Positions 3,400 to 53,926 of a stretch of 64,000 nt of DNA are shown here, piece by piece. Each line of letters begins with the position of its first letter. Position 1 is the stretch's first letter. Under the pieces are notes generated by a model. The model was not told where the DNA came from, did not search any database, and was given only the letters and a program-made list of their open reading frames with translations. The DNA lies in the NCBI GenBank assembly GCA_944376845.1, contig CALWDZ010000003.1:59758-123757 (forward strand), in the 5' to 3' direction. A program made the translations under genes and the position numbers. The stretch comes from an uncultured Clostridia bacterium. GTDB lineage: Bacteria; Bacillota; Clostridia; Christensenellales; UBA1242.

Positions 3400-3434
3400 C
3401 ACACAGTCATTTAGGTAAACTAAACTCCTGCGTG
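3400..3434 (+). repeat. 35-nt conserved motif CACACAGTCATTTAGGTAAACTAAACTCCTGCGTG, second copy at 52500-52533
   Basis: Direct comparison gives about 31 of 35 positions identical to the insert of array unit Y1. Both copies are preceded by a short hairpin of different sequence. Confidence 0.7.
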
Positions 3435-4237: not shown

Positions 4238-4545
4238 TTCATTCTGAACCTTTTTTGTCTGAGCCTTATCTTCTGCTATTCTGACATTATCTTCCGTCAT
4301 TCTGAGCGTAAGCGAAGAATCTCAACTTTACGTCACCCTGACCACTGCTCGCTTTGACGGAGAGGAAGGGTCTCTAAGAGGATGAGACTCTTCGTCAGCC
4401 GTCAGGGAAGCCACACTCAGAGTGACTAGAAAAATGTCATTCTGAACCCTTATGTCATTCTAAACAATCTTTTGTCATTCTGAGCGAAGCGAAGAATCTC
4501 AAAGATGTCTTACTTCGCTCGACATGACAAGAGAGAGTGACATAA
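4238..4545 (+). repeat. cluster of GC-rich short repeats (S modules GTCATTCTGAG..GAAGAATCTC at 4296-4323 and 4474-4500, degenerate copies, and a 95-nt L module at 4332-4426)
   Basis: Repeated GTCATTCTGA[GA]C words. The L module GTCACCCTGACC...CAGAGTGAC recurs at 30.9 and 31.6 kb. GC content is clearly above the flanks. Confidence 0.85.
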
Positions 4546-4732: not shown

Positions 4733-6424
4733 ATGAATAGAAAGTCTAAGTTATTCTTAAGTTTAGTATCGTTATGTTTTAGTATAGCAGTACTATGTTT
4801 TGGAGTATATAGTGCACTAAGTGTAAGTTACTCCATAAGTGGTAGTGTAAGTTATGAAATAAACGATGTGTTTGTAGAGTTAAACTTAAGTGTGTATAGA
4901 GAATTATCTACAACACCAGTTAATAGTGCAACACATAATCAAAACATAAGCACAATAAAGGATGCAGGAGATACCATCTCCGAAACAGACTTTGGCAAAC
5001 TTTCATACACCGATCATGAATCCACATACGAGGATGGAGAAGTTAAACCGGGCAATGAAGATGGAATATTTGAAGCAGATTCACCAAATTTAGCCTTAAC
5101 ATACGGCTCACCAACAAACGACAATCAAGGTTATGCATTTTATATAGTAATAGATATACATAACCTAGGCAGTGAGATAATAAACGCACAAATAACAGCA
5201 CCAACATCACTAGAGAACACCATTTTACGTGACTCAGGCAATGTAGAAATAACAGCAGACGGCACAGAGAGAATAGTATTAGGTTTAGCCCTAGACGATG
5301 TAACAAAAGGTATAACAAGTGCTGACTTTACCTATACAATAACAATCACGCGTGGTGAATTGCCTATAGAACCGATAATAGATATGGATTTTGGTATTGA
5401 TGAAATTACAAAAACCGCTACGCTTGCATCTTACACCGGATCGGGTGGTGATGTAATTATACCTAATTCGATAGGCTATAATTCACTTTCTTCAAAGACT
5501 TTAATATTTAACTCAATGGAAGATATGCTATCAGGAGCGAGAGGGATATATTTTTTTCAAGATTTATATATAACACTTCCAAATCAGAAAGCACAACTTA
5601 TTGAAAATCCAGTATTATGGTATATTGATAATTTAGGAAATATCCAATCATCACCACAAAATTATTTTTCAATGACAATACAAACTGTAGAAAGTTATAC
5701 AATTGACCAAGTAGATTATGCTGAATTTAATCAAAAAATGGCACATATGGCCACGACGCTTGCTTTTGGACCTATCCAAATGATAATGCAGAACATGTCT
5801 TTAACTTCAGTAGATGTACAATATGGCACAGAAGACCAATCTTTTACTTTTAATATGGAAAACTATAATGCTTATATGGATGGTGATGATAGCCCAATAA
5901 GTACAGTAATAGATGATTTTATGTCAAAAATGGAATCTGATCCAGAATCGTTATTGCCAGTAACTTATAGTAATTTTGAATATATTGTAGTTGTTAAAGA
6001 TGGTGAATATTCTGTAACAAGTATAGGAGAGAGTGCTTTCTCTAGTTTTAGTTCACTCACTAGTATAGAGATACCAAGCAGTGTAACAAGTATAGGCTCT
6101 AGTGCCTTCAATAATTGCTCTGCTTTAGAAACAATAACCTTTGGAGCGAACTCGCAACTAGAGAGTATAGGAGGGTCTGCCTTCTCTGGTTGTTCCAACT
6201 TAACCAGCATCACAATCCCAAGCAATGTGACAAGTATAGGCGATGAGGCCTTCGAAAGTTGTTCACTAGAAACATTAACATTTGAAGATGCCGATAGTAT
6301 ATGGGTGCTTAATGATAATACCGAGATTATAATAAGTGACCATACTGCTCAAGAACTTGCAGATTTTATAACAGACAACTACACTTACATGTATTCTACC
6401 TGGACAAAAAAGCAATCAGCATAG
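4733..6424 (+). CDS. surface protein with N-terminal signal anchor, TasA-like N-domain and C-terminal BspA-type leucine-rich repeats
   Basis: RBS AAAGGAGAAAAAGT precedes the ATG at 4733. Hydrophobic N-terminus ends in FGVYSA. C-terminal repeats SIGESAFSSFSSLTSIEIPSSVTSIGSSAFNNCSALETITF are typical of the BspA/LRR_5 type. Confidence 0.75.
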   Translation: MNRKSKLFLSLVSLCFSIAVLCFGVYSALSVSYSISGSVSYEINDVFVELNLSVYRELSTTPVNSATHNQNISTIKDAGDTISETDFGKLSYTDHESTYEDGEVKPGNEDGIFEADSPNLALTYGSPTNDNQGYAFYIVIDIHNLGSEIINAQITAPTSLENTILRDSGNVEITADGTERIVLGLALDDVTKGITSADFTYTITITRGELPIEPIIDMDFGIDEITKTATLASYTGSGGDVIIPNSIGYNSLSSKTLIFNSMEDMLSGARGIYFFQDLYITLPNQKAQLIENPVLWYIDNLGNIQSSPQNYFSMTIQTVESYTIDQVDYAEFNQKMAHMATTLAFGPIQMIMQNMSLTSVDVQYGTEDQSFTFNMENYNAYMDGDDSPISTVIDDFMSKMESDPESLLPVTYSNFEYIVVVKDGEYSVTSIGESAFSSFSSLTSIEIPSSVTSIGSSAFNNCSALETITFGANSQLESIGGSAFSGCSNLTSITIPSNVTSIGDEAFESCSLETLTFEDADSIWVLNDNTEIIISDHTAQELADFITDNYTYMYSTWTKKQSA

Positions 6425-6508
6425 ATATAAATAAAAAATAGGCACGCTTGAATAATAAATTCATCAGTGCGCCTATTTGTACTCACCACTATGGTGAGTT
6501 AAGTTTTT

Positions 6509-7342
6509 TTAATATTCTGCAAGACTTGCAATACCTATGGCACCAATACCGACGTGTACACCAAAGACTGGTTCAAGGCCAACTTCTTCAATATTTTCAA
6601 GTCCAAGCATTTGTTTTAACTTTTCTGCAATTTTTGGTACATTAACTTTATCATAGATATAGCAAATATATATCTTTTTCAGTTTTTTAGGTAGTAGTGA
6701 AATTGCATCGGTTATCGCTTTTGTAAGCCCTAAAACTTTTTTTGTTATGGAAAGTTTGCCATCAGCAAATTTAAACAAAGGTTTAATTTTAAGTATGTTT
6801 GCAAGAGTTGCACCAAGTGTACCAATTCGTCCGCCTCTTTTTAATGCATCCATTGAGTCTGGAACAAATTGAATAGCAAGTGATTTTTCTATTTTTGGAA
6901 GGAGTTCAAGTAACTCATCAAAAGATATGCCCGCTTTAATGTGGTCAACAACTTCTTCAGTCATCATCCTTCCGCAAGTTGCTGCTTGTCTTGAATCGTG
7001 TGCAACAACACGTTTGCCTTCAAATGAATTTGCTGCAATTGTAGCGGAATTTATTGTGCCACTTAGTGCATTTGATATTGTAAGAATTAAAATTTCAGCA
7101 TCAGGGTCTTCACTATAAATTTTATTTATTGCATCCATAAAATCCTGAGGTGAAGGCTGAGAGGTGGTAGGGAAGTACTTTGATGTTTTCATTTTTTCAT
7201 AAAAATCTGCCCAAGTATCTTCAAACCCTTCTTCATAAATTTCTTCGCCTAAAATCATTTTTAAGCGTACAACTTCAATTTTATTTTCTTCTGCGTATTT
7301 TCTTGAAATTCCAAATGTGGAATCGACGATAAGTCTAATCAT
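6509..7342 (-). CDS. degV: DegV family fatty-acid-binding protein
   Basis: MIRLIVDSTFGIS start, preceded by AGGAGA. Length and sequence are typical of DegV. The upstream part of the tracked ORF lacks an RBS. Confidence 0.8.
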   Translation of the reverse strand: MIRLIVDSTFGISRKYAEENKIEVVRLKMILGEEIYEEGFEDTWADFYEKMKTSKYFPTTSQPSPQDFMDAINKIYSEDPDAEILILTISNALSGTINSATIAANSFEGKRVVAHDSRQAATCGRMMTEEVVDHIKAGISFDELLELLPKIEKSLAIQFVPDSMDALKRGGRIGTLGATLANILKIKPLFKFADGKLSITKKVLGLTKAITDAISLLPKKLKKIYICYIYDKVNVPKIAEKLKQMLGLENIEEVGLEPVFGVHVGIGAIGIASLAEY

Positions 7343-7532
7343 TGTTAATCTCCTAATTAAGATAAGAAAAATATATTTTCTTTTCAAATCAATTATACAT
7401 AAACACAGAAAAAAAGCAACTTTAATTGACTTATAAATTTAAACACAGTAAGTTTTGAAACAAAAGTGGACTTATTGTGACATTTTTTTGACTTAAATTA
7501 CAATAGTTTGATAAACTAAACTTGGAGTTATT

Positions 7533-8069
7533 ATGAAATTAGATGAAATTGAAGATTATATAACAAAATCTCTTTTAATACTTATGAAAGATACGCCTTT
7601 TGAAAAGATAACTATGGAAAAGGTGGCAGTAAAGGCTGGTGTTTCTAGGCGTACTATATATAGATATTTTGACAACAAGTTGCAAATCTTAGATACAATT
7701 TTTAAAAATATTGTAGATAACTATGCAAAAAAGATAAAAGATGACTTAAATTCTCATGGCAATGTACTAGTCACTAGTTTTGAGTTTATTTTAGACAATG
7801 CAGATGTTTTTATTTTGGCATATAAAAATAATTTGCTAGACAATATAACCATGGCTATAAAAGAAGTGGTTAAGGACATTGTTTTGCATCAAAACAAAGA
7901 GGCAAAAAACTGGTCTAAAAAATACTTTGATTGCTATATTTCTTTCACCACTGGAGGAATATATAGGTTACTCTATGAATGGTTAAAGACAGGTTCAGAT
8001 AAAAACCCTGTTGAAGTTTTTGATGTGTATAAAAATGTTATAGCAGATTTGGATAAAAGTTTTAGTTAA
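7533..8069 (+). CDS. TetR/AcrR family transcriptional regulator
   Basis: N-terminal HTH VAVKAGVSRRTIYRYFDNK. 178 aa. Confidence 0.8.
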   Translation: MKLDEIEDYITKSLLILMKDTPFEKITMEKVAVKAGVSRRTIYRYFDNKLQILDTIFKNIVDNYAKKIKDDLNSHGNVLVTSFEFILDNADVFILAYKNNLLDNITMAIKEVVKDIVLHQNKEAKNWSKKYFDCYISFTTGGIYRLLYEWLKTGSDKNPVEVFDVYKNVIADLDKSFS

Positions 8070-21925: not shown

Positions 21926-21962
21926 GTCATTCTGAGGCACCGTCAGGTGCCGTGAGAATCTC
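21926..21962 (+). repeat. S-module repeat GTCATTCTGAG-(GCACCGTCAGGTGCC)-GTGAGAATCTC
   Basis: Conserved clamp words with a hairpin insert. Confidence 0.8.
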
Positions 21963-29081: not shown

Positions 29082-29126
29082 GTCATTCTGAGTCCAACTT
29101 CAACGCGTCGACCTGCGAAGAATCTC
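29082..29126 (+). repeat. S-module repeat with ACGCGTCGAC-containing insert
   Basis: GTCATTCTGAGTCCAACTTCAACGCGTCGACCTGCGAAGAATCTC is nearly identical to the copies at 30866 and 31536. Confidence 0.85.
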
Positions 29127-30476: not shown

Positions 30477-30570
30477 AAGGTTGCGAGAGCGACTGAATTA
30501 CCCGAATTCGAAACAAGATCTCAGATGTTGTTTCATGCGGGTGGGGCTGCGGCGCCACCCCTTTTTTTTT
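30477..30570 (+). ncRNA. candidate ~95-nt small RNA (or structured RT 3' UTR) ending in a strong intrinsic terminator
   Basis: Bounded by the promoter above and by a GC-rich hairpin at 30538-30561 plus T9. Internal hairpins GAATT-ACCCG-AATTC and GAAACA..TGTTTC. No RBS for the 33-codon ORF it contains. Confidence 0.4.
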
Positions 30571-30696
30571 AAAACTAAAAAATAACTCTTGATAGTTTCG
30601 TTTACTGCCAAGCGTGTCCGCACAGTTACGTACGTTTGTACGCGCCTGCGCGGACACACTTGTCGAGCCTTACTCTCAAGGTTATTTTTTAGTTTT
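30571..30696 (+). repeat. 126-nt multi-helix element A1 (family with 52329-52454)
   Basis: 16-bp terminal stem AAAACTAAAAAATAAC/GTTATTTTTTAGTTTT, junction motif CGTTTACTG, inner stem GTGTCCGC/GCGGACAC, core hairpin CGTAC-GTTT-GTACG, junction motif GTCGAGCCT. Confidence 0.8.
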
Positions 30697-30735
30697 AAAT
30701 ATTATTTAGCCTTGTCTTTCTTCGCAAAAACGATG

Positions 30736-30781
30736 TGCGCGGACTTGTCGAGCCTTACTCTCAAGGTTATTTTTTAGTTTT
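30736..30781 (+). repeat. partial second copy (3' half) of element A1
   Basis: TGCGCGGAC-TTGTCGAGCCTTACTCTCAAGGTTATTTTTTAGTTTT duplicates 30647-30696 with a 4-nt deletion. Confidence 0.8.
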
Positions 30782-30795
30782 AAATATACTATTTA

Positions 30796-31066
30796 GTCAC
30801 CCTGACCGCTCTCAGACCACTTGTCATTCTGAGGAGCGAAGCGACGTGAGAATCTCATCATCTTGTCATTCTGAGCCCAACTTCAACGCGTCGACCTGCG
30901 AAGAATCTCTATCATATGTCACCCTGACCACTGGCCCGCTTTGATGGAGAGGAAGGGTCTCAACTATAAGAGATCCTTCGTCAGCCGTCAAGGAAGCCAC
31001 ACTCAGAGTGACTAAAAAAATTGTCATTCTGAGCCTCGACCCGCAGAGACGGAGACGAAGAATCTC
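30796..31066 (+). repeat. repeat block left of GIY-YIG (S and L modules; contains the left ~177-bp direct repeat at 30821-30997)
   Basis: Near-identical to 31491-31666. Confidence 0.9.
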
Positions 31067-31086
31067 TTTAAGCATTTGCCAAATAT

Positions 31087-31401
31087 ATGAATTTGTGTAA
31101 TAATCTTACTATGTATTATGTTTACATTTTATCCAATAAAAACAATACGGTTTTATACATTGGAGTTACAAATAATTTGGTAAGAAGAGTTTATGAACAT
31201 AAACAAAAATTTGTTCAAGGTTTTACAAAAACTTATAATGTAGACAAACTTGTTTATTATGAAATTTTGTATGATCCATATAATGCAATTACAAGAGAAA
31301 AACAATTGAAAGGATTGAAAAGAAAGAAAAAAGATATGCTAATAAATAATTTTAATCCGGATTGGCACGATTTATATCAAGATATTTGTAATAGCGTATG
31401 A
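31087..31401 (+). CDS. GIY-YIG nuclease family protein (small UPF0213/COG2827-type)
   Basis: YYVYILSNKNNTVLYIGVTNNLVRRVYEH...AITREKQLKGLKRKKK is the GIY-YIG core. The start may be the ATG at 31111. Confidence 0.85.
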   Translation: MNLCNNLTMYYVYILSNKNNTVLYIGVTNNLVRRVYEHKQKFVQGFTKTYNVDKLVYYEILYDPYNAITREKQLKGLKRKKKDMLINNFNPDWHDLYQDICNSV

Positions 31402-31700
31402 GATCCTTCGTCAGCCGTCAAGGAAGCAGTTCTCAGGATGACACACACAGTCTTCTGAGCATATTTTTCTGTCATTCTGAGCGTACTTTTTTGTCATTCT
31501 GAGGAGCGAAGCGACGTGAGAATCTCATCATCTAGTCATTCTGAGCCACACTCCAACGCGTCGACCTACGAAGAATCTCTATCATATGTCACCCTGACCG
31601 CTCCCCGCTTTGACGGAGAGGAAGGGTCTCAACTATAAGAGATCCTTCGTCAGCCGTCAAGGAAGCAGTTCTCAGGATGACACACACAGTCATTCTGAGT
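31399..31700 (+). repeat. repeat block right of GIY-YIG (contains the right ~177-bp direct repeat at 31491-31666 and a 60-nt segment duplicated at 31401 and 31640)
   Basis: Direct sequence comparison. The GIY-YIG stop codon is the first triplet of the block. Confidence 0.9.
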
Positions 31701-31704
31701 CAAG

Positions 31705-32166
31705 TCACACGGCATCGTCAGAAATGTGATGAGTTTTATTCTTTAAACAAAATAGAGCGTATAAAGGTACTGATTTTATGTTGTTTTCAAAACCAAAATT
31801 TTTAGATGAAACTCTAATAGAGTAGATAGGATTATATTTTTTTACAAACACACCAAGACTTTTTGCTTGGACATTGTCTACATATTTGCATTCAATTGGG
31901 ACTATACCATTCTCTAACTGAATAACAAAGTCAAGTTCAGCCTTTCCATTGGACTCCCAATAATATGGTTCAAGCCCAATTGAAATAAGTTGTTGCATAA
32001 CATAGTTTTCAGATATTGCACCTTTGGCATCGCTTGACAACATATCCATTAAAATATTTTGATAGTTTAAATTTAAACTATTTGATAGCAAGCCTACATC
32101 ACTCATATATATTTTATAACTTAATAAATCTTCATAAATTTTTAAAGGCATCAATTTAAGAAGCAT
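31705..32166 (-). pseudogene. C-terminal remnant of a DUF4143-type AAA ATPase
   Basis: Only the ~150-aa C-terminal region is present (…AELDFVIQLENGIVPIECKY…). The ~250-aa ATPase part has no room before gltX. Confidence 0.6.
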
Positions 32167-45949: not shown

Positions 45950-46049
45950 AGAAGAAATAATATCACAAAACTGCAAAATAACAAATCATTTAACAATATT
46001 TATTTTATCGTCATACAATGAAATGAATACACTTAAAAGGAGAAGGACA

Positions 46050-46916
46050 ATGCCATGTAATTGTAATAATACGCCACCACCATGTTGTGAAAATATTTTC
46101 GCAACAAACACGGTGACGAGAAGTCAACGCGGTCCACAAGGTCCTACAGGTCCAACCGGACCAACAGGCCCTTCTACTGGAGCGACTGGTCCAACCGGTG
46201 CAACAGGTCCAACCGGTGCCACAGGTCCTACTGGAGCAACTGGTCCAACAGGTGCACAAGGCCCACAAGGAATACAAGGTATTCAAGGATTTGCTGGTAT
46301 ACAAGGTCCTACAGGAACAACGGGTGCCACGGGACCAACAGGAGCCACAGGAGCGACTGGTCCAGCCGGAGCGACTGGTCCAACTGGACCTGCCGGAGCA
46401 ACAGGCGCGACAGGTGCAACCGGACCAACAGGTGCAACAGGTCCTACTGGTGCCACTGGAGTTACGCCAACATTTACTATTGGTACCGTAACCACTGGAG
46501 CACCTGGAACCACTGCAACGGCTAATATAACTGGAACTGCACCAAACTTTTTCTTGAATTTGATAATACCTCAAGGTGCCACAGGTCCAACTGGGGCAAC
46601 GGGACCAGCAGGTACGACAGGTGCAACCGGCCCAACTGGACCTATAGGAACATTAGGTGCAACAGGTCCAACAGGAGCAACTGGGGCGACAGGTGCTACA
46701 GGCCCAACGGGACCTGCCGGAGCAACGGGTACCACTGGAGCAACTGGACCAACCGGCCCAGCGGGAGCAACGGGAGCAACAGGCCCTACAGGACCAGCAG
46801 GTGCAACTGGTGCAACGGGTCCAACTGGACCTGCCGGGGCAACAGGTGCTACAGGTCCAACCGGACCAACTGGAGCGACGGGACCAACCGGACCAACTGG
46901 CCCAACTGGACCATAA
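46050..46916 (+). CDS. collagen-like triple-helix repeat protein (BclA-like surface protein)
   Basis: RBS AAAGGAGAAGG. Cys-rich N-terminus [13 protein letters not shown]. Two G-x-T blocks are separated by [39 protein letters not shown]. The protein ends inside the repeat. Confidence 0.85.
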
Positions 46917-50545: not shown

Positions 50546-52330
50546 ATGAAACATTTAACAAGTGAACAATTGAGGTCGATGTATATAAAGTTTTTTGTCG
50601 ACCACGGACATGTACAAATTCCTTCTGCATCAGTAATTCCAGAAAATGACCCAACGGTGCTTTTCACCACTGCAGGTATGCATCCACTAGTCCCATACCT
50701 TCTTGGAGAAAAACATCCAGCAGGCAAAAGACTTACTGATTATCAAAAATGCATAAGAACAGGTGATATTGATGATGTAGGTGATTCTTCACACTGCACA
50801 TTTTTTGAGATGCTAGGTAACTGGAGCCTTGGAGATTATTTTAAGGAACAAATGATTGCATGGAGTTATGAGTTTTTAACAAGTCCAAAATATCTTGGAA
50901 TTGACAAAAATAAAGTTGCCGTTTCAGTTTTTGCTGGCGATAATGAAATGCCTCGTGATGAAGAAAGTGCAATGCTTTGGGAAAAAGCAGGAATAAACAA
51001 GGAAGACATTTACTACCTTTCAAGAGAGCATAACTTTTGGGGACCGGCAGGTACAACAGGCCCTTGCGGTACAGATACAGAGATGTTTATAAAAGTCAAA
51101 GAAAAATGTTCAAAAGATTGCTCACCGGCATGTTCTTGTGGTGCATTTTTGGAAATTTGGAATGATGTCTTTATGGCGTATAACAAAAACGCTGATGGCA
51201 CTTATTCGCCATTAAAGCAAAGAAATGTCGACACCGGAATGGGCTTGGAGCGAACATTATGTGTTTTGAATAATGAACAATCAGTTTATGATACCGACCT
51301 TTTTGAAAATGCCAGGAAAAAATTAGAAGAACTTACAGGACTTAAATATGGTGAGAATGGAAAAATAACGAAGGCATTTCGTGTTATTTTAGACCATATC
51401 CGTACTGCTGTTTTTATGCTTGGTGACCAAAATGGAATTGTTCCAAGCAATGTTGACCAAGGTTATATCTTGCGTAGAATACTTCGTGGTGCAATTCGTC
51501 ATGCACGCACCGTCGGACTTAAAGAAGGTGAGCTGAATGAAATTGCAAAACAATATATTGAAAAATATAAAGATGTCTATCCAGAACTTTTACAAAATAA
51601 AGATAAAATTAATGAAGAAATAACAAAAGAATACAAAAAGTTTATGAGAACACTTGAAGGTGGACTAAAAGAATTTGAACGCACTGTAAAAAAATTAAGT
51701 GGTGATACAATTGATGGTGTTACAGCATTCCATCTTTTTGATACCTTTGGTTTTCCACTTGAGATGACTATTGAACTTGCAAAAGAACAAAATCTTAAAG
51801 TAGATGTGGATGGCTATAAAGAAGCATTTAAAAAACATCAAGAGATTTCACGCGCGGGAAGTGAACAAAAATTTGCATGTGGTCTTGCAGATAACCAAGA
51901 GGCAACTACTCATCTTCACACAGCAACACATCTTTTGCATGCAGCACTTAAAAAAGTAATTTCACCTGATGTAAATCAAAAAGGTAGCAATATAACAGCG
52001 GAAAGGCTGCGCTTTGATTTTAATCTTGATAGACCTTGCACAAAAGAAGAATTGCAAAAAATTGAAGATATGGTCAATGATGTCATAAAGCAAAATATTC
52101 CAGTCGTTATGGAAGAAATGACTGTTGAAGAAGCAAAAAATCGTGGTTTTATAGGACTATTTACAAATAAATACGGTGACAAAGTCAAAACTTATAGAAT
52201 AGGTGATTTTTCAAAAGAAATTTGCGGTGGGCCTCATGCAAATTTTACTGGAGAACTCGGACATTTCAAAATTGTAAAAGAGCAGTCTTGCAGTGCGGGG
52301 GTACGCAGGATTAAAGCCATCCTCGAATAA
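50546..52330 (+). CDS. alaS: alanine--tRNA ligase, short form (594 aa, no C-Ala domain)
   Basis: N-terminal FTTAGMHPLVPYLLG, WNDVFM, editing-domain HTATHLLHAAL and CGGPH. Ends at GVRRIKAILE. Confidence 0.85.
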   Translation: MKHLTSEQLRSMYIKFFVDHGHVQIPSASVIPENDPTVLFTTAGMHPLVPYLLGEKHPAGKRLTDYQKCIRTGDIDDVGDSSHCTFFEMLGNWSLGDYFKEQMIAWSYEFLTSPKYLGIDKNKVAVSVFAGDNEMPRDEESAMLWEKAGINKEDIYYLSREHNFWGPAGTTGPCGTDTEMFIKVKEKCSKDCSPACSCGAFLEIWNDVFMAYNKNADGTYSPLKQRNVDTGMGLERTLCVLNNEQSVYDTDLFENARKKLEELTGLKYGENGKITKAFRVILDHIRTAVFMLGDQNGIVPSNVDQGYILRRILRGAIRHARTVGLKEGELNEIAKQYIEKYKDVYPELLQNKDKINEEITKEYKKFMRTLEGGLKEFERTVKKLSGDTIDGVTAFHLFDTFGFPLEMTIELAKEQNLKVDVDGYKEAFKKHQEISRAGSEQKFACGLADNQEATTHLHTATHLLHAALKKVISPDVNQKGSNITAERLRFDFNLDRPCTKEELQKIEDMVNDVIKQNIPVVMEEMTVEEAKNRGFIGLFTNKYGDKVKTYRIGDFSKEICGGPHANFTGELGHFKIVKEQSCSAGVRRIKAILE

Positions 52331-52905
52331 AACGCAAAATTGTGGGTGTCTGCGTCGTTTACTGTCGGGCAACCCTCACACAATCACGTACAAAGTACGC
52401 TCGTGCGTGAGGGCACCCGCCGAGCCTAGCATCCACCGCACAATTTTGCGTTTTAATTTATTTTAATTGTCATTTCATCGTTTACCGTTAAAGTGAGTTC
52501 ACATAGTCATTTAGGGAACTAAACTTCTGCGTGACACAACAAGTCGAGCCTCGTCTTTGCCGCACAATTTTGCGTTTTTTATATTATATTAGTGTGTCTG
52601 CGTCGTTTACTGTCGGGCAACCCTCACACAATCACGTACAAAGTACGCTCGTGCGTGAGGGCACCCGCCGAGCCTAGCATCCACCGCACAATTTTGCGTT
52701 TTTATTTATTTTAATTGTCATCGCATCGTTTACTGTCAAGTGAGTTTACATAGACTATTTTAAGCCCAAAAGCGAGAGTTTTGACGATGTCGAGCCTCGT
52801 CTTTGCCGCACAATTTTGCGTTTTTTATATTATATTAGGGTGTCTGCGTCGTTTACTGTCGGGCAACCCTCACACAGTCACGTACAAAGTACGCTCGTGC
52901 GTGAG
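52329..52905 (+). repeat. tandem array (~247-bp period, 2.4 copies) of alternating 126/123-nt X and Y units of the CGTTTACYG...GYCGAGCC element family
   Basis: X1 52329-52454, Y1 52455-52580, X2 52581-52703, Y2 52704-52826, X3 (partial) 52827-52905. The X units are nearly identical. The Y units share their flanks but differ in a ~55-nt insert. Confidence 0.9.
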
Positions 52906-52926
52906 CGTGTGGTAATCTCTACTTGT

Positions 52927-52960
52927 GTCGTTCTGAGGAGCGAAGCGACGTGAGAATCTC
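52927..52960 (+). repeat. S-module repeat GTCGTTCTGAGGAGCGAAGCGACGTGAGAATCTC
   Basis: Matches the copies at 30823 and 31493. Confidence 0.8.
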
Positions 52961-52971
52961 ATCATTTAAAA

Positions 52972-52999
52972 GACTTCATTTTTGTGTGAAGTTTTTTTA
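52972..52999 (+). terminator. intrinsic terminator closing the alaS-array unit
   Basis: ACTTCA-TTTTTGTG-TGAAGT followed by T7. Confidence 0.65.
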
Positions 53000-53056
53000 T
53001 TATATATTGGTTTTTTTATTTAAATATGCTAATATATTAGTTATAGAGAGTGTATT

Positions 53057-53926
53057 ATGAAATTTGACATAAATAAAATTTTTTTAAAAAGAAAAGCCAA
53101 AGTTGGTATTGCTTTTGGTGGAGGTGGAGCAAGAGGATTTGCACACCTTGGAGTAATAAAGGCTTTTGAGGAATATGGGATAAAGGCGAGTGATTTTGCT
53201 TTTATTTGTGGTACTAGTGCTGGCAGTATCATTGGTGCATTTTATGCTGCCGGGTATACTTTTAGTCAAATGATGAAAATTGCTAAAAACATAAAGGAAG
53301 AAGATATACGCACAAACAAAATTCCTTTTATGCCATCCAAAACTGATGGTATAACAGATTTAATTATTGCACAACTTGGTGATATAAACATAGAAGATTT
53401 GCCACTTCCTTATGCGTGTGTGGCTTGTGACATAAAGTCCACGAAAGAAATAATTATCAAAAAAGGCAACCTTGCAAAAGCGGTTGCGGGTAGTTGTTGT
53501 GTTCCAGGAGTTTTTGTACCTGTCGTGTTTGAAAAATATCATCTTTGTGATGGCGGTCTTAAAAATACAATTCCAACAAGTGTTCCTAAAAGATTTGGTT
53601 GTGATTACTGTATTGGGGTTGATGTCAATAAACATAGAACATATGGAACAGATAGTTTAAAACTTGTTGATGTTGTGTCATGCTCAATTCGCGTTTTAAT
53701 GGAAAATACTGCACTTAGAGGGTACCTTAGTGCTGATGTTATGATAGGTCCCGAAACTAAACGATTTTCAGCGTCAAAGACTGAGGGTATGATGGATATG
53801 GTGGATGAAGGATATAAAGAAACCATAGATAAAATGCCTGAAATATTAGCATTACTTAGTAAAAAGCCACAAAAATCAAAGTTTAAAGAACAGTTTAGTA
53901 GTGAGGAACCAGAAATCAATGGTTAA
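53057..53926 (+). CDS. patatin-like phospholipase
   Basis: GGGGARG oxyanion motif, GTSAGS (GxSxG) and DGG catalytic Asp motif. Confidence 0.85.
   Translation: MKFDINKIFLKRKAKVGIAFGGGGARGFAHLGVIKAFEEYGIKASDFAFICGTSAGSIIGAFYAAGYTFSQMMKIAKNIKEEDIRTNKIPFMPSKTDGITDLIIAQLGDINIEDLPLPYACVACDIKSTKEIIIKKGNLAKAVAGSCCVPGVFVPVVFEKYHLCDGGLKNTIPTSVPKRFGCDYCIGVDVNKHRTYGTDSLKLVDVVSCSIRVLMENTALRGYLSADVMIGPETKRFSASKTEGMMDMVDEGYKETIDKMPEILALLSKKPQKSKFKEQFSSEEPEING

Follow-up and report, generated by a model that had tools for sequence, protein, structure and literature searches.

Enterobacterial repetitive intergenic consensus (ERIC, or IRU) elements are imperfect palindromes of ~127 bp that lie in transcribed intergenic regions of enterobacteria in tens to hundreds of copies per genome, show compensatory changes and have no transposase of their own. 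Repetitive extragenic palindromes (REPs) placed within approximately 15 nt of a stop codon reportedly affect translation in E. coli. A conserved stem-loop close to the stop codon is a general feature of transcript 3′ ends, both with a U-tract and without one (PMC13613805). Here we describe a stretch of 64,000 nt (hereafter the window) of contig CALWDZ010000003.1, assembly GCA_944376845.1, from an uncultured Clostridia bacterium, in which an array of five tandem units (52329–52905, + strand; all coordinates are positions in the window) follows alaS, the gene for alanyl-tRNA synthetase (AlaRS). The best reading of this array is a local pile-up of an uncatalogued hairpin repeat of ~135 nt that is spread genome-wide, the family being typical of Christensenellaceae-like gut Clostridia. 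We put at roughly 0.5 the probability that the family is a structured repeat of the REP/ERIC/MITE kind (MITE, miniature inverted-repeat transposable element), with the complete first unit forming the alaS 3′-end hairpin and the later units being decaying tandem duplicates.

The alaS gene (50546–52330, +; 594 aa; Pfam tRNA-synt_2c and tRNA_SAD) ends in a TAA that lies within the 5′ outer arm of the first unit. A prior description made from the letters of the window (the sequence-only reading) had divided the array into alternating X and Y units, and its sequence-level claims were reproduced, with one qualification concerning the second of two loop motifs. Tandem Repeats Finder reports a period of 124 nt and 4.5 copies (52346–52905), and the ~247-nt X/Y period is recovered by a repeat finder as direct-repeat families spaced 246–248 nt apart. 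By the same means X1 and X2 are 97% identical over 146 nt, whilst in BLAST Y1 and Y2 share 50 nt on the 5′ side (88%) and 38 nt on the 3′ side (100%) around dissimilar centres of 55 nt. The motif CGTTTACYG starts at 52356, 52479, 52604, 52727 and 52850, hence in all five units, and once more at 30599 (six occurrences in the window, 0.40 expected). GYCGAGCC, which had been ascribed to every unit, is present in four of them (52419, 52543, 52667 and 52789) but missing from the truncated X3; with two further starts at 30662 and 30747 it also totals six in the window, against 0.32 expected. The two motifs are 53–55 nt apart in each full unit. An identical 3′ arm, CGCACAATTTTGCG, is present in exactly four copies (52437, 52561, 52685 and 52807), and its 5′ partner, (T)AAAACGCAAAATTGTG, in a single one (52328–52344, +) that includes the alaS TAA (52328–52330); this lone 5′ outer arm, TAAAACGCAAAATTGTG, is the perfect inverted complement of all four 3′ arms.

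X1 (52329–52455) is a complete member, anchored on the alaS stop and supplying its TAA, and scores 92.3 bits with the covariance model introduced below. Its order is outer helix, TCGTTTACTG loop strand, inner helix, ACGTAC-type apical hairpin, GCCGAGCCT loop strand, 3′ arm and T-run; it folds at −59.8 kcal/mol on the + strand (z −7.3, including the U-run) and at −69.0 kcal/mol on the − strand. X2 (52581–52704; 91.8 bits) repeats the core of X1 exactly (109 nt at 100% identity), but in its 5′ arm TATATTATATTAG stands in place of the outer 16 nt. X3 (52827–52905), which is 3′-truncated and ends within the inner helix, is 98.5% identical to X1 over 68 nt and gives a partial model match (52870–52904). 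X2 and X3 are near-identical copies of X1 that lack only the outer 16 nt of its 5′ arm, one junction being common to both. The intervening Y1 (52456–52580; 36.8 bits) and Y2 (52705–52826; 23.2 bits), like the X units on the + strand, are degenerate members whose folds are no better than those of shuffled sequence (z −0.9 and −0.4, respectively). Y1 retains both loop motifs and the 3′ arm without a 5′ partner, and has an TCATTTAGG-type apical module in a core resembling those of three loci from other genomes (L039, L005 and L016). The 55-nt core of Y2 forms no hairpin, and its BLAST likeness to Y1 is confined to the flanks. The linker behind the Y units resembles the sequence behind the final terminator (repeat family D3).

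Downstream of X3 lies an S-module (52926–52965, +), a member of a second dispersed repeat family of the form GTC(A/G)TTCTGAG..GCGAAGCGA..GAGAATCTC, which, as had been noted, is 97.5% identical to two other window copies (30822–30861 and 31492–31531). It is followed by an A/U-rich hairpin with U7 (52968–52999, +). The closing terminator proposed there in the sequence-only reading stands in so far as a 12-bp A/U-rich stem followed by U7 folds near 52999, in both minimum-free-energy (MFE) and centroid structures, but a consensus terminator scan makes no call; this hairpin is probably the final intrinsic terminator of the region. The scan calls nothing in the whole of 52200–53100, which includes the X1 hairpin and the UUUUAAUUU behind it.

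An independent short-read assembly of run ERR4096478 stops at 52373 (contig L001), 45 nt into X1, and restarts near 52942 (L185), within the S-module; since it breaks at both edges of the array, the number of units is not independently confirmed. That these breaks coincide exactly with the array edges speaks for an assembly artefact, the alternating array then being one or two repeat copies that were collapsed or expanded by mis-assembly. We consider such an artefact highly improbable, given that the units (X, Y1, Y2 and truncated X3) are distinct with unique junctions, that comparable arrays are found in many independent metagenome-assembled genomes (MAGs), and that one 555-nt array has the same unit layout in two MAGs (L090 and L093).

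The window contains the family at a second locus. Z1 (30566–30702, +; 101.1 bits) is a complete member located directly after a GC-hairpin/T9 terminator; its loop motifs are 54 nt apart, its outer arms differ in sequence from those at alaS and are again complementary, and it folds at −51.6 (+) and −61.8 (−) kcal/mol. Z2 (30703–30790, +) is a 5′-truncated copy lacking the TCGTTTAC motif; it agrees with Z1 throughout the 45 nt on its 3′ side, which comprise loop strand, 3′ arm and linker (30743–30787 is 100% identical to 30658–30702). Both motifs at a distance of 53–55 nt, a self-complementary core and complementary outer arms, which together characterise the new family, are present in X1, X2 and Z1. 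A weak model match at 3400–3434 (−; 20 bits, E 0.15) covers the apical-module region only and may be a fragment or due to chance.

Scanning one genome per GTDB species with the pattern TCGTTTACYGYY-N46–58-GYCGAGCCT matched at least 116 loci. Among the matches listed, to which the family counts below also refer, about 90 are true hairpin elements, and nearly all of these come from gut or rumen MAGs that bear the label Clostridia, Christensenellaceae or Christensenella; the remaining matches are due to chance and lie inside genes of high-GC taxa. A covariance model, R1, built from 56 members, recognises 136 members in 97 loci, and the 33 model-found members outside the exact scan pattern keep AGGCTCG and AG(T)AAAC at 82–100%. 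The sequence-only reading had offered, as one possibility, a hotspot where a modular repeat family accumulates, and this is borne out by the presence of the same family at the second window locus and at more than 90 loci of related MAGs, often as arrays. Rfam 15 returned no match for the array or for either strand of 51800–53400, even at E ≤ 10, nothing for the elements of 15 related loci, and only tRNAs for the whole window; the twister, pistol, hatchet, hairpin and hammerhead ribozymes, ToxI (and with it a ToxI-like reading of the units) and Clostridiales-1 were rejected, as no match came near the gathering threshold. No description of the hairpin repeat family was found in full-text literature searches plus the supplements of one paper. 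A phage origin was rejected on a search of 2.9 million viral contigs, which held a single chance match without a hairpin, and a small-peptide reading of the units was also rejected.

A complete member is a rod-like interrupted hairpin of ~135 nt. The outer helix (16–30 bp) varies between genomes and loci, and leads to an internal loop that is asymmetric and invariant, TCGTTTACYG forming its 5′ strand and GYCGAGCCT the opposite, 3′ strand. Beyond it follow an inner helix of ~12 bp, freely varying and strongly covarying, a small conserved internal loop, and an apical hairpin, for which the types TCATTTAGG...CTAAA, ACGTAC...GTACG and GACC...GGTC are seen. Many copies have TA or TTAA at their ends, those of class C reading TTAAG...CTTAA. 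In the family alignment 88.7% of the cells are paired, compensatory (both-side) changes amount to 795 cells against 271 ± 14 in shuffles, and the covariation score is 0.627, compared to ~0.1 when the partners are slid by 1–3 columns. Cores are genome-specific even at orthologous loci, and the units of one array often have common arms and different cores. The layout of constant flanks around a variable core, which had been singled out as unusual, is the normal architecture of the family, since invariant loop motifs there enclose a covarying helix.

Members sit at gene 3′ ends in sense orientation, with the upstream stop codon within the 5′ strand of the outer helix. Counting upstream same-strand reading frames of at least 100 codons, the stop lies within the 5′ arm of the element in 43 of 98 copies, and very few copies are 10–110 nt off. 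With one unit taken per intergenic region, the stop is at most 32 nt from the motif in 38 of 66 regions, against 8.6 expected from uniform placement, a count reached in none of 100,000 simulations (P<1e-5). Relative to the flanking genes, which are housekeeping genes, 58 elements are co-oriented and 3 opposed; this favours a role in the sense transcript. Elements occupy the same place in orthologous genes of different species: a queA-like gene (...FGDACLIL*) has one in five genomes, an acs-like gene in two, and rpsG in several. For the first two of these genes the 5′ arm is the natural coding end, and the 3′ arm is complementary to the synonymous codons of each species. Other open reading frames (ORFs) also end inside an element. 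Of 11 arrays, 10 have their best outer helix in the unit nearest the gene (mean score 39.5 for gene-proximal units, compared to 18.4 for later units), and the later units have the same 3′ arm and no 5′ partner; orphan 3′ halves (37) outnumber orphan 5′ halves (17).

Anchoring at stop codons is general in the family, and a specific link of the units to alaS, suggested in the sequence-only reading, is refuted by comparison with relatives. Loci whose AlaRS is 94% (L118 and L119) or 82% (L120) identical to that of the window have an ordinary short terminator and no unit, and model R1 finds no unit after alaS in these three or in L122–L124, at ~80% identity. In the window the alaS TAA belongs to a hairpin arm, and AlaRS (594 aa) is one residue shorter than its 94%-identical orthologs (595 aa, ...ILEK*). 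The enzyme has catalytic and editing-associated SAD domains with no Pfam match past residue 589, a short form that is typical of the lineage, because close homologs are all of 593–625 aa. The rpsG–fusA spacer measures 12 nt in some genomes, and 413–578 nt in others, among them one closely related to the window organism, where it holds 2–3 units and then S-modules. Both at alaS and at rpsG–fusA, orthologous sites are thus polymorphic for the presence or absence of units. In L118, the closest relative, the interval between alaS and the patatin gene (5571–7776 of that locus) contains a short ORF, the N-terminus of which we take, by eye only, to resemble a fragment of an IS3-family transposase, and then a 631-aa leucine-rich-repeat protein. 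As the window array occupies an interval filled otherwise in L118, the alaS–patatin interval is a variable spot in this lineage.

How might such an array form and act? That the units are a co-transcribed 3′ extension of alaS, another possibility raised in the sequence-only reading, is plausible for the first complete unit, because members are co-oriented with the upstream gene and overlap its stop. If the complete first unit is the 3′-end hairpin of alaS, the last alaS bases would pair in the mRNA with the 3′ arm ~110 nt downstream, and the resulting helix of ~40 bp, broken by internal loops and followed by a U-run, would end and/or protect the transcript, X1 presumably having taken the place of the native alaS terminator. 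A ribosome terminating at the UAA would need to open the outer helix. The extra units would be tandem segmental duplicates of the core, 3′ arm and downstream linker and not independent genes; a duplication of this extent would explain why they keep the 3′ arm without its 5′ partner. Hairpins arising in the course of replication, or else unequal exchange, probably promoted the duplications, one plausible route being hairpin-stabilised 5′ flaps on the nascent lagging strand, which would carry the better-folding strand. The duplicates may then have decayed and swapped cores with other genomic copies, giving rise to Y1, Y2 and truncated X3. The genome-specific cores at orthologous loci imply that some homogenising process exists, and a putative trans-acting protein reading the invariant loop might spread or homogenise the family within genomes.

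Several observations weigh against this account of a structured repeat with decaying duplicates. Simple duplication leaves common arms with different cores, as in Y1/Y2 and in other arrays, unexplained; no transposase, target-site duplication or autonomous parent has been demonstrated; and stop-codon anchoring is without an established DNA-level mechanism. The inner domain, moreover, is better suited to the antisense than to the mRNA strand. Of 117 members, 109 have a core with the better fold on the antisense strand (mean MFE −46.1 kcal/mol, compared to −39.9 kcal/mol for the sense strand); three conserved positions are G.U there but A.C on the other strand, and only the antisense strand has a tandem G.A motif. 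At least 6 T within 11 nt are found at the 3′ arm end in only ~25% of members, so intrinsic termination cannot be the general function of the family, and a general terminator role was rejected with ~75% of members lacking a T-rich tail.

A second account, possible though on balance doubtful, makes the anchoring itself the defining property. The repeat would be a gene-end element in which the stop and last codons form one strand of the helix, the 3′ strand being either templated from the gene end at insertion or turnover, or kept by selection. If templated, it would be mobile, with stop codons as its target and an outer arm of its own making; if selected, it would be a translation-sensitive switch at the mRNA 3′ end, opened by terminating ribosomes, with an invariant loop read by a dedicated putative protein. 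With either option, arrays would record successive events at the gene-proximal position.

The strand asymmetry would be explained by an element acting as DNA, a reading that we judge to be about as doubtful. Here the folded antisense single strand would be the substrate of a trans-acting recombinase, or of an HUH/Y1-type transposase, that reads the invariant loop, in an attC-like or REP/RAYT-like manner (RAYT, REP-associated tyrosine transposase), and arrays and core swaps would result from repeated site-specific events at the gene-proximal position. The better fold of the antisense strand and its conserved G.T positions agree with such a substrate. Outside the three conserved columns wobble-type mismatches are near-symmetric between the strands (inner helix 80 vs 51, outer helix 76 vs 112), as expected without selection on one RNA. 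The common arms and different cores within an array look cassette-like, cores are specific to genomes at orthologous loci, and the position 3′ of ORFs, the overlap with the stop and the better-folding bottom strand are all attC-like. The orientation bias, too, fits replication direction equally well, because in 80 of 89 loci the motif strand is G-rich, with a positive GC skew; telling replication from transcription as the source of the orientation by the skew at third codon positions (GC3 skew) in 8-kb loci left 5 informative loci, codon usage dominating the signal. Mutational bias as the source of the strand asymmetry was rejected by reasoning, as leading-strand C-to-T changes would put the wobbles on the gene-sense strand, the opposite of what is observed. 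Against a DNA-level substrate, neither window locus has a recombinase, transposase or reverse transcriptase nearby, and none recurs among 459 ORFs lying up to 2.5 kb from members (the search being of these neighbourhoods and not of whole genomes); the Pfam domains of nine neighbouring proteins in the window are those of aminoacyl-tRNA synthetases, patatin, a metallo-beta-lactamase-fold protein and DUF4143. The structured strand is, as inferred from GC skew, the leading-strand template and not the lagging-strand template used in IS200/IS605-type transposition, the R-box consensus of attC sites is missing, anything similar being in reversed order, and the upstream genes are housekeeping genes, not cassettes.

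Strong covariation and invariant loops in a rod-like fold, together with G.U pairs and a tandem G.A motif that are RNA-like, could instead point to a multi-copy small-RNA locus, transcribed from either strand from its own promoters or processed from a precursor, with the loop serving as a protein-binding or catalytic site. The sequence-only reading had proposed separately transcribed structured RNAs along these lines, and its candidate promoters, TTGCCG-17-TATATT, are indeed found twice, before X2 and X3, with 9 of 12 consensus positions matched. These sites are weak, however, and the proposal receives little support: in the flanks of the family −10-like boxes are about equally frequent on both strands (68 vs 80) and do not peak at any position other than the palindromic arm ends, hence giving no strand-specific promoter signal, and a dedicated antisense promoter was rejected on these counts. 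Most members are without terminator tails in either direction, the Y units and later array units are degenerate, and there is no likeness to Rfam 15 families, ribozymes included. We thus regard a small-RNA locus as unlikely.

Truncation patterns raise one further alternative, a retroelement-like process in which gene-sense transcripts would be reverse-transcribed from their 3′ end, and the often 5′-truncated copies re-inserted beside the gene end. It would account for a structure suited to the antisense (complementary DNA, cDNA) strand and for 3′ arms that copy the gene end. In its favour, most truncated copies have lost the 5′ side and kept the 3′ end, an element in sense orientation can do without its own promoter, the better fold is that of the cDNA-sense strand, and each 3′ arm is complementary to the coding end of its particular gene. 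The neighbourhoods contained no reverse transcriptase, however, and we know of no mechanism for retro-copying of this kind in bacteria. The truncated copies are also tandem and not dispersed, which fits local duplication rather than retro-copying, and we hold this process to be very unlikely.

The S-module family (GTCATTCTGAG..GCGAAGCGA..GAGAATCTC, a short hairpin) has 18 matches in the window, 14 of them on the + strand, compared to 0.65 expected, at 4296–4484, 21926–21936, 29082–29126, 30823–31699 and 52926–52965. S-modules follow arrays of hairpin units at three independent loci (alaS, the 30.8-kb locus, and rpsG–fusA in L089); the family is also present in L005. A 177-nt segment of S-modules and related modules is duplicated (30821–30997 and 31491–31666; 95% identity, ~670 nt apart) in a repeat-rich, gene-poor stretch at 30.8–31.7 kb that adjoins a truncated DUF4143 ORF (31705–32166, −). 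Directly upstream of Z1, 30478–30572 (+) folds into four hairpins, the last GC-rich and followed by T9 (−36.5 kcal/mol, z −3.7); this region, without Rfam match, is downstream of a 499-aa ORF without Pfam match and may be a small RNA or a structured 3′ untranslated region. Elsewhere in the window, a collagen-like ORF of 297 aa with Gly-X-Thr/Pro repeats (46023–46916, +) is the only strong compositional outlier, at 52% GC against 32% for the window. In another pair of genomes (L029:3075–4296 and L094:6199–6745) flanks that are 96% identical enclose wholly different sequence between a tRNA gene and the next gene, one with a reading frame of ~270 codons and the other with two hairpin units and a repeat of the type TAAAATAGACAAAAGTAGGAGAAAAAGGC...; one of the two units is flanked on either side by a copy of a terminator-like hairpin (AAATCGC..GGCGATTT).

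In the gut, Christensenellaceae-like Clostridia are a prominent group for which most knowledge comes from MAGs, and a high-copy structured element on the stop codons of their core genes (alaS, rpsG, queA-like) matters in several respects. It breaks short-read assemblies, as at the alaS array; it can alter protein C-termini, as in the AlaRS shortened by one residue; and it probably influences both the 3′ ends of mRNAs and the expression of operons, the rpsG–fusA spacer being one example. It also offers a natural case of coding sequence covarying with a downstream non-coding arm. Were the anchoring to reflect targeting or templating, it would represent a new mode of repeat propagation; were it to reflect function, a new class of translation-coupled 3′-end structure. 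Model R1 now allows the family to be annotated.

Compared with known systems, the family behaves like ERIC, REP and bacterial interspersed mosaic elements (BIMEs), MITEs and, in part, attC sites, yet fails the defining tests of each. It shares with ERIC its size, the long interrupted hairpin, the location in transcribed regions by gene ends and a fold kept by compensatory change. It belongs, however, to another phylum, its loop alone is invariant whilst both helices vary, orientation is nearly fixed, the stop codon is part of a helix, and tandem units without a 5′ arm are common; the ERIC2 primer sequence (22 nt, part of the ERIC consensus) has no window match at up to 3 mismatches, the full consensus not having been compared. 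With REPs and BIMEs it has in common the extragenic palindromes at gene 3′ ends, mosaic clusters with short modules (compare the S-modules), proximity to stops and a putative stabilising role at mRNA 3′ ends. REPs, in contrast, are 20–40 nt long, have a GTAG head, alternate in orientation and are tied to RAYTs, whereas the family is ~135 nt and in direct orientation; its units are all of one orientation without a GTAG head, and no RAYT was seen in the neighbourhoods, the genome not having been searched for one.

The resemblance to MITEs (Correia/NEMIS, RUP and BOX) extends to terminal inverted repeats, here outer arms complementary over 16–30 nt, presence/absence polymorphism, genome-specific homogeneous subfamilies, TA/TTAA ends and modularity. 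The termini of the family are nonetheless its least conserved part across genomes and the internal loop its most conserved, and the 5′ arm can be the coding sequence of the gene itself (queA and acs orthologs). TA/TTAA at both ends could be a target-site duplication or part of the repeat; no further direct repeat extends beyond, and there is no clean filled/empty pair. Neither an autonomous insertion sequence nor a nearby transposase was seen among the neighbouring ORFs or in the Pfam domains of the window neighbours, whole genomes again being outside the search.

Like attC sites, members are structured sites 3′ of an ORF and in its orientation, often including the stop, with a better-folding bottom strand, conserved short motifs around a variable covarying helix of 60–140 nt, and arrays. 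Unlike them, they have no RYYYAAC...GTTRRRY boxes at the base, array units are not split by ORFs, and the upstream genes are core housekeeping genes. Membership of attC was rejected, as TCGTTTACYG/GYCGAGCCT lies in the internal loop and GTTAGGC/GCCTAAC occurs in one subfamily only, in reversed order; no integrase or attI is present among the neighbours, and the upstream genes are alaS, rpsG, queA-like and acs-like. A CRISPR array was rejected on the period (124/247 nt), on ‘spacers’ (the X cores) that are repeated and self-complementary, and on the absence of cas genes among the nine neighbouring proteins scanned, and a retron msr-msd on the absence of a reverse transcriptase by either locus or recurrently near members. 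X1 and Z1 resemble rho-independent terminators in being flanked by an A-run and a T-run at the place expected of a gene terminator, but the family hairpin is approximately ten times longer, has conserved internal loops and mostly lacks the T-rich tail. What sets the family apart is the combination of an invariant internal loop with freely covarying helices, a near-fixed orientation, a stop codon in the outer helix, with the codons of the gene sometimes serving as one strand, and arrays where a 5′ partner is confined to the unit next to the gene.

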